In this document: in pieces, positions 46,366-64,000 of the stretch
Layout of the letters: each line of letters opens with the position of its first letter
Position numbering within the stretch: the stretch's first letter is position 1
Assembly (NCBI GenBank): GCA_002269645.1
Contig: NIVC01003027.1
Location: forward strand, 60,593 to 124,592
From: Macrostomum lignano
Taxonomy: Eukaryota
Direction: 5' to 3'
Length of the DNA stretch: 64,000 nucleotides
Notes under the pieces: generated by a model
Database searches by the model: none
The model's input: only the letters and a program-made list of their open reading frames with translations
Told to the model about the DNA's origin: nothing
Position numbers and translations under genes: made by a program

Positions 46366-47947
46366 ATGGGAACAGTATGTTGGACAGAGACAGATCTAGG
46401 GAGTGTCGAGTGAGTCTCATCACTGCTGAATCACGCCATTTGCCTAATAGTTTGCCTTGCTTGATCATTTGGTAGGCACTTTAGTGGCCTTGGGGATTCC
46501 CTGTCCGCCACCCCATTCCGTTTGTCGTCCAGTGTGCAGCCACCCCACTCCCGCTATGTACATTTTAACGTCGGTTTAGCGTCGGTAAAAACCGATCGGC
46601 CAAAGTTTTATACATTCCTGACGACAAGAGAAAACATTTGTCATATTGGGGTTAGGGTAGGGTTAGGTTTTGTGAGTTTTGTGTCGAAGTTGTGAAATGT
46701 CGGAGCTGTGAAAGCACCTCCTTTTTGATAACTTTTTAGGGAACTAAAAAATAAGCGTTCGAATACAATTGGACACTGTGATAAAAGGCATAACCAAAAT
46801 GCAGTAAATGGAGCAAACTGTAGTAGGCCAGCGGTTATAAGTTATGATACAGAAAGTCAGAAATGCTAACTTGACAATTTATATAATTGAGAATGTTTCA
46901 ATGCAGCCAATTAACTTCAACTGAATTTTATATAAATTTATTTATTAAAGCATGAACTGAAGCGATTTTGAATTACGAATGTTTCATTCTTTATTGACAA
47001 ACTAACAAATTGAATTGTGTAAACTTAATTCAGCACAAGGGATCAGTGCAGAGAAATTTGGAGTGAAAAATGATCTGGTTAAACAAATTCCAAATTCCGA
47101 ATACCTTTTAGCGGAACTGTTACTGTTATGGCAATTGAACGTAACCAGACCAGAATTTTTTCATTCTACTATAATATTCTGAGTCGTTGACTAAACATTT
47201 ATAATATTCTTCCATTCAACTTCCAGAACAAGACGAAAAAATGGTACAAAAATAGCATGTTCATCTGACTACTAAGCGATTTATGGATTTTCTGCCAAAG
47301 TACTTGAAATACTTTCAGCATTTCATTTTGGACAGTCAGCATCTTTCAAATTACAAGAGCTGGGGGGAATACGAGCTACAAAAGAAATTTACCTACGCCT
47401 TCACAACCAGAAAAAGCATTTAAAGTATTGTAGAATTGCGAAAATAATTGAGGCGTGAAACGCGGTGGTTCGTTTGTTTTGGTTTTTGCTTTGATTGTTT
47501 TCCGTGCGGAAAATAAGAGGGACTGCGGGCTTGAGTATAATTGCGTGCTAGGGTGCTGTATATTTATATTCGTGTTAAAAGAACATTCAGGAATCCGGAA
47601 AGTTCGAGAAGCAGTTTCTAGAAAGGGGGTGCGCGGGAATTCAAAATGCCAAATATGGAAAGTGCGTGTTTACGCGGAAGTTTCTAGAATATAATAGTTA
47701 TAATACGCTAGCTGCAATACTTTTATATTATTAGTGAATACGCTACAACAGTTCCCCCGCCGGAGACGGAGTCACCTGGAGAAGTACAGGAAAAAATTAT
47801 ATACATTAGATGATGAATTGGGGGGGGGGCGTGGACATGTACGTTTGTACATGCAGATTTCAAACTGTTACAGCATAGGGGCGATGATGTACACATTCAA
47901 TAATAAGTGAAACGTTATAACTGGTGAAGTCAAGCTAGTAGAAGGCA

Positions 47948-48499
47948 TGAGGGGGCTTCTGGGACAAAATTTTTCACGTCCTCCATAATCCACCTAAATC
48001 CATCCATATTATCCCTGACAGAATCAGAAAAAAAGGGGGGTCGCACTTACTCCAAAAACTTCGAACATAATCCCATTAAATCCATCCATATTATCCCTGA
48101 CAGAATCAGAAAAAAAAGGGGGGTCGCACTCGCTCACAAAACATCCTCCATAATCCACCTAAATCCATCCATATTATCCCTGACAGAATCATGAAAAAGG
48201 GGAGGGGCCGCACTTGCTCACAAAACATCCTCCATAATCCTATTAAATCCATCCATATTATCCCTGACAGAATCAGAGCAGGTGTCAACTGATACCTGTT
48301 ATGCTCACTGACACCGACATCCACCCATAGCATCTTCGAAACAATCAGAAAATAATCTGCATTCTTCTCCCCACATTCAATCCGCAACGTGCTACCACAT
48401 CCCTAAGACTTTAAATCATCAGCGCAGGGTCTTTACCCTTTGAAAAAAAAATAAATTCTCAATAAAAATGTTTTCAGTTGTCTCTCCAGGTTCTTATTA
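47948..48499 (+). repeat. left terminal inverted repeat (~550 bp) with four internal ~80-bp repeats
   Basis: Reverse complement of 63443-64000. AAATCCATCCATATTATCCCTGACAGAATCA occurs 4 times. Confidence 0.95.
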
Positions 48500-48653
48500 T
48501 AGTAACTCACGCTGAACAGTTCTGCCAAGCTTGTTAATGTCTACTAAGATCTATTCATACACAATGCTCTTACATCTAAAATCAACGCTTGCAACTATTT
48601 ATCTAAGGGAAAATGTAAAACTACCCTCTAGGGCACCAGCTACAGAGCCAGCT

Positions 48654-48770
48654 ACAAATGTTCCTCAGCCGAACAAATGTTCTGTCGCCGAACAAATGTT
48701 CCTCAGCCGAACAAATGTTCCTCAGCCGAACATTTGTTCCTCAGCCCAACAAATGTTCCGCCGCCGAACA
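48654..48770. repeat. 19-bp tandem repeat x6 (AACAAATGTTCCTCAGCCG) inside the element
   Basis: Each unit junction forms the dyad GAAC-AAAT-GTTC. Confidence 0.85.
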
Positions 48771-49188
48771 TGTACAGAGCAAATATCTCTTCCCCCATGC
48801 AAAAGCTTTATGCCCTTACTAACTCAGAGTACGCAGGCCCCGTATACAGAGAGAACCTCTCTTCCTATACACAAGCTTCTCCTCACCGTGAGCATTTATT
48901 TCTACATAGCAAGTTCTCTCTCTTTCCACTTCTCTACCTACAGTCAATCCCGCAGCACGTATGGGTATGCTACGTATGGCATACGTATGGCCAACCAAAA
49001 CCATACCCCCGATCCTCCATTGTCCCTCGTCCCACAGCTCTTCTCAGTCTACTCAATTCTCTCCCCTTATCCCCAAAGCCAAGTCGTCTCGCCGCTATCA
49101 GGCGGACACCCTCCCCCCCCCCAAAGTCTGTCGGGTAAGGAAGAAAGCTTATTTATACAACTACTTTTGAAGAGTTACTCGGTTAAAA

Positions 49189-61077: not shown

Positions 61078-62360
61078 ATGAACGACCCACTGACACCAGT
61101 TTTCTACAAATTAACAAGCCTATTTTGAGTGATGATAGCACAATCAAAGCGACTCACAAAGAGTTCCGAGTCACGAAAATCAGAATGAAACTAATCTTGG
61201 TCCTGGTCAAACACTGACGTTTACATACAATGGATGTTCGTCTCTGGTTAGTGTGCACAGTCTTAAGAGCGGCTTCCATATGACATTTCAATTCAAGACA
61301 AAAGGTGGTGCGGATGCGGCTCGTGCTAACGTTGACAAGCATGATGCGGATGTGGCTCTGATCAGTAACTTTTGGGCGTACATGTTCAAGGAGTTTAGTG
61401 TATCGAATGGGAGCACAGAGTTGGAGCGAATCGCCAACTTTGGAATTGTCTATGACGCTCATTGTTTGATCGAGAATCCTGATTTTATTCAGTTGGGAAG
61501 TGGTGCGGGTTTTATTGCAGATGAAAAAGAAGGAGACATCAATGACAGTGGCTATAAAAAGAGGAAGAAGAGATACAACTATGCATTGCAAGGTGCTGAT
61601 GATGCTGCTAAGAACCCGCAGTATCGGTCTGTTGATGTATTTGTACCATTGAGATTCATGAGTGGATTCTGTAATACATTTAATCGACTGACTAGTAACT
61701 TTAGCTACACCTTTAGGATGACTAGAGATGATCGCAGTAGAGTGTTGTGGACTGGGCGGATCACACAAGGATGGAGGTGAAGCTAACCGGAATCGAGCTG
61801 TATTTGGAAGTCATTGAGCCAAAGACTGCACTAAAAGCAGACTATCTTAAGGCAATAGAGAAGGACATTGATGTTGCATACACAGCCTACATGTGTCGAG
61901 ATGAGCGAAACGAAACTAGAACAAACATCTGCATTAAAGAGGGATCATGCAGCAATCCAAGGTATATCATTATTACATATGAGAAACCCAAATAGCATTA
62001 TACGCTACATGCATGGAGACGTGCGGTCCATTCAGCATGAAATCAGTGATAATCTTTACCCTGCACTGCCACAAAATGGAGATTTCAGTCAGAACAAGAT
62101 TAGCAAATTTTACAGCGAGTTAGTCGACTTGGCTGTGAAAGAGAACAATGGAATTGCTATCACTGCTCTTCAATATGGAACTCTATATCCGATGTTTGGA
62201 GCTGATGTGTCTGCCAGACAAATGCCTACTGATAACAGCCCTGTGAATATCGTGACTAACATTGAAGGACTGTCGCAACACCCGTGGACCTGTACATTAT
62301 CTATGCATTTGAGAGGAAGGTGAAGCTTAACATGATCAACAATTCATCCAGTAAAGTTAA
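61078..62360 (+). CDS. double jelly-roll major capsid protein (hexon/PY), frameshifted; end approximate
   Basis: Segments ALISNFWAYMFKEF, VFVPLRFMSGFCNTFNR, VKLTGIELYLEVIEP, NPRYIIIT and YGTLYPMFGADVS occur in the order of Polinton MCP motifs. Confidence 0.88.
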
Positions 62361-62380
62361 ATATTTTTTTATGTGAAAAA

Positions 62381-63232
62381 ATGGAAGCGATTGCTGAAAG
62401 ACTAAATAATGTTTCGCACTCTAAGGAGAGCATTCCTATTACAATAACTGGGCGAATTAATGACTCAAACGGGATATTTGTTCAAAAATTAGAGCAAGCG
62501 ATTCGCTGGATCCAGGCGCTAATTACCATGTCTATCTTAACGACTTCACCGGTTGGTCAAACGTTCCCAATGTGTCGGCAGCAAATAATAAGTTTTATTA
62601 CAAATGGAAAGGTGAAGCAGAACTGTGGTATTCCATGTGAGCACGCAAAGTGTGGATACTCACAATTACTTTCTAGAAAACGTCTTTACTAAAAGAGGCC
62701 ATTTTGAGACACCTGATGAGTAAGCCAGATAAAAAATTGTTCCCTGTCAAACTACCTATGATCTCACTGTAATGAGAGTGGTCATGCAAGTTCACAAAGA
62801 TGCGGAGTTGAGTTTAAAGATGACACTTGGTATAGGGAATTGGATTCGTGAAGAAAGTTTATAAGGCAGAATCCACAGCGCGGACTGTCACTCAAGCGAC
62901 GGGGGCCGTTTAGCATGGCCCGGGAAAGTGTACGCGGTTTGTTCTTAGCACCCAATATAGCAGACATTGTAAAGGGTTTGAATATTCTAATCAGAACTAA
63001 TCTCAGTCTTGATTGGGTATTTAAGGAAAGCGAACGAATATTTTGTGTACAACATCTCCAACTCTGTTGCTGGAGGACAGATGGTGGTAGAGAAACCAAA
63101 TCCAGTGAAAAGAGTTGTATTGAGTAATAAGGAGATTCACGAGATTGTGCTACAGTTTGAGACTGAAGATGGGTAGGTGTTGATTTCAACGGTGAAGAGT
63201 TTGTATTGACGTTGATCATTGAGAGAATGTGA
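62381..63232 (+). CDS. single jelly-roll minor capsid protein (penton/PX), frameshifted
   Basis: Joined frames give IRLDPGANYHVYLNDFTGWSNVPNVSAANNKFYY ... NILIRTNL ... VEKPNPVKRV...IHEIVLQFETEDG.VDFNGEEFVLTLIIERM*. Confidence 0.85.
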
Positions 63233-63442
63233 GAAATCACAATTGCTTAATGATTTCTGCAAAGTTATAGTAGCTGTCGTAATCGTTTAATGATTACTCC
63301 ATACTTATGAAACCAGTGTCTTTGGAGAGCTAGATTAATATTAGGGACATTGATATCAACGTTGGGCCAATATTTTCTCATGTACTCGCTGCATTCAAGT
63401 TTGATTGGTACTTGGATTTGTAATTAGGCTCGTGCCGCTTTG

Positions 63443-64000
63443 TAATAAGAACCTGGAGAGACAACTGGAAACATTTTTTAGAGAAAATTTAATTTTTTTT
63501 CAAAGGTAAGGACCCTGGGTTAGGGGATTTAAAGTTTTAGGGATGTGGTAGCACGTTGCAAATTGAATGTGCGGGAGAAGAATGCAGATTATTTCTGATT
63601 GTTTCTGGTGGATGTTAGTGGATTATGTCAGTGTCAGTGAGTATAACAGGTGTTAGTGGACATCTGTTATGCACTGATTCTGTCAGGGATAATATGGATG
63701 GATTAATACGATTATGTCGAAGTTTTCGGAGCAAGTGCGACCCCTCCACTTTTTCATGATTCTGTCGGGGATAATATGGATGGATTTAGGTGAATTATGG
63801 AGGATGTTTTGTGAGCGAGTGCGACCCCCCTTTTTTTCTGATTCTGTCAGGGATAATATGGATGGATTTAATGGGATTATGTTCGAAGTTTTTGGAGTAA
63901 GTGCGACCCCCCCTTTTTTCTGATTCTGTCAGGGATAATATGGATGGATTTAGGTGGATTATGGAGGACGTGAAAAATTTTGCTCCCAGAAGCCCCCTCA
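63443..64000 (-). repeat. right terminal inverted repeat (truncated by the window edge)
   Basis: Reverse complement of 47948-48499. Confidence 0.95.

Follow-up and report, generated by a model that had tools for sequence, protein, structure and literature searches.

A young, high-copy Polinton family of Macrostomum lignano with a variable slot in which helical proteins appear paired with their own repeat arrays

Introduction

The replication, integration and packaging of Polintons, also known as Mavericks, follow a scheme set out in PMC11071308, PMC8097293 and PMC8502044 (available text of each), and a full set of virion genes is normal for the Mavericks of animals (available text of PMC8097293 and PMC8502044). 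Exchange of modules has been described for adintoviruses and Polintons in the accessible parts of two sources (PMC8502044, section 3.1; 10.64898/2026.10.13.758929). Here we describe an element of this kind in the flatworm Macrostomum lignano, within a stretch of 64,000 nucleotides called the window below (assembly GCA_002269645.1, contig NIVC01003027.1, positions 60,593 to 124,592), which forms the last 64 kb of this contig (C3027) in an assembled genome of 764 Mb. Eupolintoviridae is the family name for animal Polintons of the Alpha adintovirus kind.

According to our analysis, the window probably holds one integrated copy of a Polinton/Maverick family, likely of the Alpha-adintovirus type, that comprises well over 100 close copies and has likely spread recently as packaged elements, and in which the stretch between the left terminal repeat and the phospholipase gene (hereafter the slot) would be an exchangeable, most likely self-regulatory cassette. 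A sequence-only reading of the window had proposed a complete endogenous adintovirus/Polinton with a full virion gene set. Its identification of the element, the virion gene set and the true integration are supported by genes, folds and junctions. Neither "complete" nor "inducible" follows from the data; as assembled, the window ends 11 nt before the right terminus and nine of the 13 genes are frameshifted. Because a full virion gene set is normal in animal Mavericks, the finding as originally worded is also less surprising.

Element boundaries and insertion site

The element occupies 16 kb, from 47937 to the window end, where contig C3027 stops 11 nt short of the right terminus. Its boundaries are as follows:

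47931..47936, no strand: left target-site duplication CAAGCT, with an identical 6-mer after the right terminus on contig C1664
47937..48499 (end approximate), plus strand: left terminal inverted repeat, beginning AGTAG (repeat comparison)
about 63443..64000, minus strand: right terminal inverted repeat, whose last 11 nt lie beyond the contig end (repeat comparison)

The terminal inverted repeats of about 560 bp are 90% identical over 563 nt and 99% identical in the outer arm. The left one contains an 82-84-bp unit in about 3.5 copies (47979-48277), and in some sister elements this unit has grown to about 10-20 copies (L024, 13-1700; right ends of L025 and L027). Dating of the insertion by its two terminal repeats was rejected, since their inner parts differ equally in both assemblies of the insertion.

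The insertion site lies in a host repeat, and six of six other examined copies of this flanking repeat carry no element there. The left junction recurs on contig C5234 (99.8% over 3.5 kb), and at one genomic place, on contig C1664, the right terminus runs into the 6-mer CAAGCT and then into the flank that was to be expected. The empty sites, the repeated left junction and the matching right junction together indicate an insertion and not a chimeric contig junction at about 47940, which the sequence-only reading had named as a danger to its own interpretation. Both ends could be reached in 9 of the 38 fetched sister copies, of which six show a perfect 6-bp duplication, one a duplication with one mismatch and two none; the latter two, C5234 included, are probably misjoins or recombinants. 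The inverted repeats at the termini and the 6-bp duplications of the target that are the hallmark of Polintons/Mavericks are therefore both present.

That the 16-kb element is a mis-assembled chimera of several copies could be argued from its extension to the contig end, from the identical left but different right flank of C5234 and from the two two-ended copies without duplication. We consider this very unlikely, because C1664 overlaps the element from 49493 to the right end with 0-1% substitutions in every gene tested, and bears both the matching duplication and the downstream flank.

Gene content and capsid proteins

Translations of the window bear out the 13 genes with the order and strands given by the sequence-only reading. 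Domains of frameshifted genes were scored on natural open frames from sister copies. The genes are:

49189..49956, plus strand: ORF255 (open reading frame, ORF), open, no Pfam family, one of the variable-slot types, with weak likeness to other slot proteins
50362..50820, minus strand: parvovirus-type phospholipase A2 (PLA2), frameshifted, no intron; PF08398 at E 5.5e-13 on a sister-copy open frame
50847..51884, plus strand: rve (DDE) integrase, open; PF00665 at E 7.6e-9, above the Pfam cut-off, on the window itself
51901..52346, plus strand: protein-X (mu)-like core protein (pX), frameshifted; PF05829 at E 1.6e-7 on a sister-copy open frame
52471..56310, plus strand: protein-primed DNA polymerase B (pPolB), in five frames here; PF03175 at E 8e-12, above cut-off, on the window itself, with catalytic motifs across several frames
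56344..56744, plus strand: adenain-type cysteine protease, frameshifted; PF00770 at E 5e-4, below cut-off, in sister copies
56755..57457 (ends approximate), minus strand: two-transmembrane-helix hairpin protein, frameshifted; 186 relatives at E<=0.001
57555..58373, minus strand: coiled-coil protein, open, C-terminal part variable between copies (translations, copy comparison)
58390..59190, minus strand: A32/FtsK-type packaging ATPase, open; PF04665 at E 7e-6, above cut-off, on the window itself
59461..59843, minus strand: small GSG-motif protein with an amphipathic stretch, frameshifted (translations)
59860..61047, minus strand: conserved ORF of about 400 aa, no known family, split here; two types about 27% apart among copies
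61078..62356, plus strand: major capsid protein (MCP), double-jelly-roll, frameshifted (sister-copy open frame, fold model)
62381..63225 (end approximate), plus strand: single-jelly-roll penton, frameshifted (fold model)

Open as assembled are ORF255 and the genes for the integrase, the coiled-coil protein and the ATPase; frameshifted are those for PLA2, pX, pPolB, the protease, the two-transmembrane protein, the GSG protein, the conserved ORF, MCP and penton. The PLA2 gene shows YCGP and HDxxY, which we take to be the motifs of a parvovirus-type phospholipase A2, and the visible His, Asp and Cys motifs of the protease are presumably the adenain-type catalytic ones. pPolB combines a putative vOTU domain, judged from its Cys/His motifs only, with an HNH (endonuclease VII) insert and with exonuclease and polymerase motifs. 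The element hence has the protein-primed family B polymerase, rve integrase, packaging ATPase and cysteine protease by which Polintons/Mavericks are recognized, the protease with a profile score below cut-off. The coiled-coil protein is possibly a fibre or spike, and the GSG protein possibly a protease-matured core or membrane-lytic protein.

The capsid calls were examined by fold, as the sequence-only reading had staked them on a jelly-roll comparison, and both proteins yielded jelly-roll matches. MCP (428 aa) has nine unnamed relatives with 43-78% identity, all carrying the double-jelly-roll-like domain PF21738, which scores E 3e-5, below cut-off, on a sister-copy open frame that is 99% like the window pieces. 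The best structural matches of its model, which is of low confidence (predicted local distance difference test, pLDDT, 54; TM about 0.3), are the double-jelly-roll capsid proteins of Sputnik (Foldseek E 2e-9), PBCV-1 and mavirus. The penton model (287 aa, pLDDT 74) matched the mavirus penton at E 3.7e-10 (Z 12.7, root-mean-square deviation 8.6, 234 aligned residues), as well as the Sputnik penton and the adenovirus penton base. These models support a double-jelly-roll MCP and a single-jelly-roll penton of the mavirus/adenovirus type.

The label "GasderminX-like", which had been given to the two-transmembrane protein, found no support in profile searches. GasderminX is a protein of the Beta-type virion module. 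With a 58-member profile no gasdermin appeared among hits to PDB sequences up to E 10, nor among the 25 listed of 26 matched Pfam families, and the gasdermin label is thus unsupported. The same profile matched the AopB translocator among PDB sequences at E 1.4e-4, and 10 of the 58 members match the RTX N-terminal domain of Pfam; the ten relatives looked up bore no names. The protein is a hydrophobic helical hairpin with plausible membrane activity.

Frameshifts and assembly errors

Contig C1664 is a second assembly of the same insertion, covering it from 49493 to the right end. The window and C1664 differ by 46 substitutions and 96 insertions or deletions (indels), counted over two compared stretches that overlap by 1.4 kb; 92 of these indels are of 1-2 nt, and 51 of those lie in single-base runs. 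Measured against natural open frames, the last seven genes of the window, near its contig end, contain 33 breaks and the same genes of C1664 none; conversely, the first four genes of C1664, near its own contig end, contain 25 breaks compared to 8 in the window. Across copies, MCP displays 49 frameshifting indels but only 3 stops by substitution, and 11 of 21 stretches are open. Because the indels do not coincide between the two assemblies, are worst at contig ends and are accompanied by few substitution stops, most of the breaks, those in this copy included, are likely to be assembly or consensus errors. Frameshift counts in this assembly must not be taken as decay.

Family size, selection and mosaicism

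All 117 integrase matches that were scored, out of 1714 candidates, are 91-100% identical. Exact-word counts in the genome amount to 346 for the termini, 241 for integrase 20-mers and 224 for MCP 20-mers, figures that are inflated by assembly redundancy.

Ratios of nonsynonymous to synonymous change (dN/dS) were pooled over 79 stretches from 39 copies plus the window, picked by integrase similarity and compared with one shared natural open frame per gene. They were 0.09 for MCP (21 stretches), 0.15 for penton (19), 0.08 for the ATPase (31), 0.13 for the integrase (42), 0.16-0.22 for the polymerase, 0.21 for the protease and 0.15-0.27 for accessory genes, values that speak for purifying selection. 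Stop counts and dN/dS of PLA2 were discarded, as the reference frame took in non-coding 5' sequence.

The copies are mosaics. The polymerase varies by 0-3%; for the ATPase, the 400-aa ORF, MCP and penton there are two types each, which differ by 20-27% and are combined in shuffled ways (27 copies), and such combinations are also found in copies with perfect target duplications. This gene-by-gene mosaicism fits recombination among replicating elements. Silent sites account for most of what separates the divergent types of ATPase, MCP and penton (proportions of synonymous and nonsynonymous differences, pS 0.6-0.8 and pN 0.06-0.10). Since capsid and packaging genes thus differ mostly silently, particle production not long ago is likely.

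The same data bear on the proposal of a transposon that died recently or is purely intragenomic, with copies that multiplied within the germline, virion genes that merely keep an older selection signature and many frameshifts that are real decay. A whole open polymerase is found in no sampled copy, many copies carry nested insertions or deletions, and the available text of PMC8097293 states that Maverick particles have not been observed and reports high-copy, all-defective families from vertebrates. Against such a transposon speak the breaks themselves, mainly 1-2-nt indels that gather near contig ends and on which two assemblies of the same insertion disagree, the rarity of substitution stops, the largely silent differences between the types of ATPase, MCP and penton, and the near-equal numbers of MCP and integrase 20-mers, which show that the capsid gene has not been shed. 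We therefore regard this proposal as quite unlikely and favour a recently spread and likely packaged family. Being young and abundant, and with selection on all of its virion genes, the family offers a good place to seek the particles that the Mavericks of animals are presumed to produce.

A degraded relic on L111 (contig C40; 1584-1796 and 2460-2680) holds MCP-like and ORF255-like pieces with 42% identity and stops; by its sequence it represents an older relative of the family.

Proteins of the variable slot

The slot differs wholly among copies. Among 104 slot regions we found at least ten types of a helical protein of 200-270 aa, plus some unrelated ORFs. The first sample supplied 39 of these regions; a further 67, nine of them picked for ORF255, supplied 65, as two had no PLA2 anchor and were dropped. 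Four protein groups detect each other with held-out profiles tested against 407 decoys, with best E-values of 1e-7, 4e-8, 1e-6 and 2e-4, although the proteins are only 10-30% identical; weaker members ranged from E 0.0015 to 0.22, and one fell outside the top five. Searches of the slot proteins against PHROGs and PDB sequences returned nothing significant, and no ParB or EBNA-like match was seen there or in Pfam. PF11300 (DUF3102) matched neither the genome nor the 11 slot proteins.

ORF255, the occupant in the window, was matched on 18 contigs (27 matches of 30 candidates). Its C-terminal pattern YP...F..L..K..IE resembles other slot proteins by eye, and its kinship to them is weakly supported. 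Three copies compared differ by 9 nonsynonymous and 3 synonymous changes. Four presumed RNA runs, which come from three studies, have contigs that cover the coding region wholly or partly: X12 and X14 most of it, X10 about 400 nt and X20 163 nt; cover by X6 was little. These contigs, which cannot show level, strand or ends, give a weak hint of expression. Over the unique flank 46802-47404, three runs presumed to be RNA gave no cover, a hole that proves nothing. None of 24 listed runs is on record as an RNA holder, which tells nothing about expression.

Other occupants (L060, 8910-9365; L114, L158, L123, L132, L141) include a PC4-like ORF (Pfam E 0.15) with a palindrome of its own, further unnamed ORFs and an GGCCTCGnnCGAGGCC array with no identified gene. 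Slots of type A2 (L062, L064, L074) also hold a reversed piece of the penton gene.

Repeat arrays of the variable slot

Most slot types combine their protein with a repeat array:

48654..48770, no strand: tandem array of six 19-bp units, at the junctions of which the palindrome GAACAnnTGTTC arises, with four perfect sites; candidate binding array of the ORF255 slot, motif E (shuffle test)
Type A: CTAACGCGTTAG
Type A2: CCAACGCGTTGG
Type C: TCAAAnTTTGA
Type C2: ATACTGCAGTAT
Type D: TTTACGAAGCTTCGTAAA
Types D2/D3: GGAnnTCC words
Type B2: a non-palindromic repeat

None of 200 shuffles yielded a palindrome core three or more times. The motif of the ORF255 array was present in 11 of the 13 ORF255 regions and in none of the 91 others. 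The remaining motifs likewise followed their own types (A 11/11, A2 4/5, C 3/3, C2 2/4, D2/D3 9/9) and occurred in no other labelled type. Where proteins are related, so are their sites: AACGCGTT is common to A and A2. The arrays are regularly spaced (19, 47, 90 and 119 bp) and in seven representatives are located 3' of the gene. Inverted copies of the element's terminal 5-mer occur within D-type arrays, and D types have a heat-shock element and a TATA box; ORF255 has no heat-shock element in the 400 bp upstream and no TATA box.

We posit that the slot is a swappable accessory cassette, as its anatomy suggests, in which most types would consist of a small helical protein and an array that repeats one palindrome, most likely the site that the protein itself binds, by which the element would regulate itself. 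ORF255 would stand in the slot with an array of its own, its membership in the protein family being weakly supported.

The slot might instead carry ordinary cargo, that is, unrelated or neutral genes and minisatellites moved by recombination and paired by linkage only. In nematode Mavericks the stretch from left repeat to integrase is described as holding variable cargo (available text of 10.1101/2022.07.12.499685), the PC4-like and other unrelated ORFs also reside in the slot, and the changes among ORF255 variants are mostly nonsynonymous. The mutual detection of four protein groups at 10-30% identity and the recurrence of unrelated palindrome arrays beside nearly all of their proteins speak against it. 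Linkage accounts for co-inheritance, but not for this recurrence beside nearly every type, nor for the related sites of related proteins, and we hold cargo to be a possible but not a probable explanation.

Protein genes with downstream arrays are also known as maintenance cassettes, as in plasmid ParB/centromere and EBNA1/oriP systems. The slot could accordingly be a cassette for episome maintenance or an origin, with types that represent incompatibility groups and not self-regulatory switches. The position of the arrays just 3' of the gene in the seven representatives, their even spacing and the inverted terminal 5-mers in D-type arrays agree with such a role. It appears unlikely to us, given that 16 of the 104 slots are nearly empty, that Pfam, PHROGs and PDB sequences gave no ParB or EBNA-like match, and that the heat-shock element and TATA box of the D types fit a regulated transcription factor.

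A bolder version of the self-regulatory cassette can be offered tentatively, by analogy, and we find it rather doubtful. The slot would be a lambda-immunity-like or plasmid-incompatibility-like cassette, with at least ten swappable types of one DNA-binding protein, each with its own palindrome array, in a backbone that is 96-99% alike. The types would be kept by competition among freely recombining, co-resident elements that still travel as particles, and ORF255 would be a member expressed in latency.

Proposed life cycle and points against it

Following known families, the polymerase would prime on its own terminal protein at the AGTAG-ended repeats, and the integrase would insert the linear copy with a 6-bp duplication. 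The ATPase would fill an icosahedral capsid of MCP and penton, which the protease would mature. PLA2, together with the amphipathic and the two-helix hairpin proteins, may serve membrane penetration at entry.

A number of observations count against the interpretation of a recently spread, packaged family with a self-regulatory slot. On the side of the assembly, two of nine two-ended copies have no duplication and one insertion lies on three contigs; owing to such misjoins and redundancy, copy counts are inflated and some mosaics could be false. On the side of selection, picking copies by their likeness in the integrase gives preference to young ones, the dN/dS values have a common reference and are not independent, and purifying selection tells of replication in the past and not of activity today. 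The polymerase is unbroken, in either half, in the reference stretch alone (1/36 and 1/35), so that no coding-complete copy is demonstrated, and the low-confidence MCP model belongs here as well. Regarding the slot, 35 of the 104 regions have no match to a seed protein, and the 16 of them that are shorter than 900 bp indicate that integrated copies can do without the slot. Against the slot-family profile ORF255 scores no better than decoys (E 13; hhalign probability 4%, P 0.01), and support for a helix-turn-helix consists of one sub-threshold Tc3-type Pfam hit in 1 of 11 slot proteins, plus inspection by eye. Type B has no array, the ORF255 array lies 5' of its gene, the array motifs were chosen from the first 39 regions, and a pairing of protein and array follows from linkage alone.

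Further observations on the element and its surroundings

Nine 21-bp tandem units between the GSG gene and the ATPase (59229-59418) put a repetitive false N-terminus on the ATPase frame. Gaps between several element genes measure only 16-33 nt. A pyrimidine tract with AG stands directly before the starts of pPolB (52440-52470), the two-transmembrane gene (57457), the ATPase (59190) and MCP (61078), that is, before 4 of 12 starts compared to 14 of 542 ATGs, by a rule fixed after the data had been seen. Polycistronic transcripts may have their cis- or spliced-leader acceptors at these tracts.

Several other features were sought and not found. The PLA2 gene had no group I intron match in Rfam up to E 1, no TBP family member occurred among 35 scanned frames, no TATATAAG late box lies upstream of 12 starts, and Pfam scans of the window and sister-copy frames gave no herpes-type fusogen. 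GGNCC is not avoided (25 sites, 19-26 expected). Sequence-atlas look-alikes of ORF255 and the two-transmembrane protein were unnamed clusters with recognition below threshold, and no related viral or metagenome contigs were found for MCP and ORF255.

Sister copy L015 has a 2.2-kb insertion in its coiled-coil gene (2151-4368). As its frames match ORFs in the host part of the window (about 27700-30050), it is a mobile repeat common to both. Host genes recognized by eye from translations (window 3389-6894, 13107-13547 and 18770-25522) comprise an HMG-box gene with Gln-rich repeats, an EF-hand-like exon and CCCH/WWE-like exons, with many minisatellites around them.

Comparison with known systems

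By its polymerase, for which 7851 of 7994 scored relatives reach E<=1e-30, the element is likely of the Alpha-adintovirus type. Named hits among the 120 listed stem from cnidarians and molluscs and include the PolB of Corynactis coral adintovirus, the nearest named virus among them, which is 37-39% identical and has the HNH insert in common with the element. Fig. S2 of PMC8502044 (available part) lists this virus in its Alpha panel. The HNH insert (53727-55058 in the window) is common to many cnidarian and mollusc Polinton enzymes, with PF02945 on many of the 120 listed hits, in contrast to the available text of PMC10748475, where it is described as peculiar to oomycete and nematode pPolB2 within its group.

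Alpha adintoviruses and Polintons of the Eupolintoviridae type, as described in the available text of PMC8502044, resemble the element in their OTU-type polymerase (the OTU domain of the element being putative), rve integrase, adenain, FtsK/A32 ATPase, hexon, penton, PLA2 and protein X. They have a PLA2X fusion according to the same text, whereas here PLA2 and protein X are separate, lie on opposite strands and flank the integrase. Further differences are that the capsid proteins of the element have only 9 and 13 unnamed sequence relatives, and that its two-transmembrane protein is not assignable to GasderminX. Vertebrate Mavericks (PMC8097293, available text) are similar in their terminal repeats, 6-bp duplications, core genes under purifying selection and 100-300 copies in some hosts; they differ in gene order and accessory set, the element here is strongly mosaic gene by gene within one genome, and that text does not mention a variable slot with arrays. 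Nematode Mavericks with wasp/krma cargo likewise have a region of low conservation between left repeat and integrase that is exchanged between elements, but their cargo consists of proteases or kinases (available text of 10.1101/2022.07.12.499685), in contrast to the small, intronless helical proteins with palindrome arrays found here. The mavirus and Sputnik virophages offer the closest solved structures for penton and MCP at 10-13% sequence identity; compared to them, the element has a full polymerase with exonuclease and is nuclear and multi-copy.

The slot itself finds its analogues elsewhere. Phage immunity regions, plasmid ParB/centromere systems and baculovirus IE1/hr each combine the gene of a DNA-binding protein with an array of palindromic sites, in specificity types. 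The putative binding proteins of the slot stand beside palindromic arrays in a similar way to these systems and to EBNA1/oriP, with no sequence match to any of them in Pfam, PHROGs or PDB sequences. Literature searches, with subscription journals and Repbase outside their range, found no paper on this family among work on flatworm Polintons, and no such cassette among work on Polintons that deals with repressors, palindromes or episomes. Should each slot protein bind its own array, the Polintons of animals would possess a regulatory or incompatibility layer that we did not find described in this literature. The element itself is the expected kind of animal Polinton, with every defining feature present, and belongs to a real, young, high-copy family whose architecture is known from many animals; less ordinary is the apparent type-by-type pairing of most slot proteins with their own repeat arrays.

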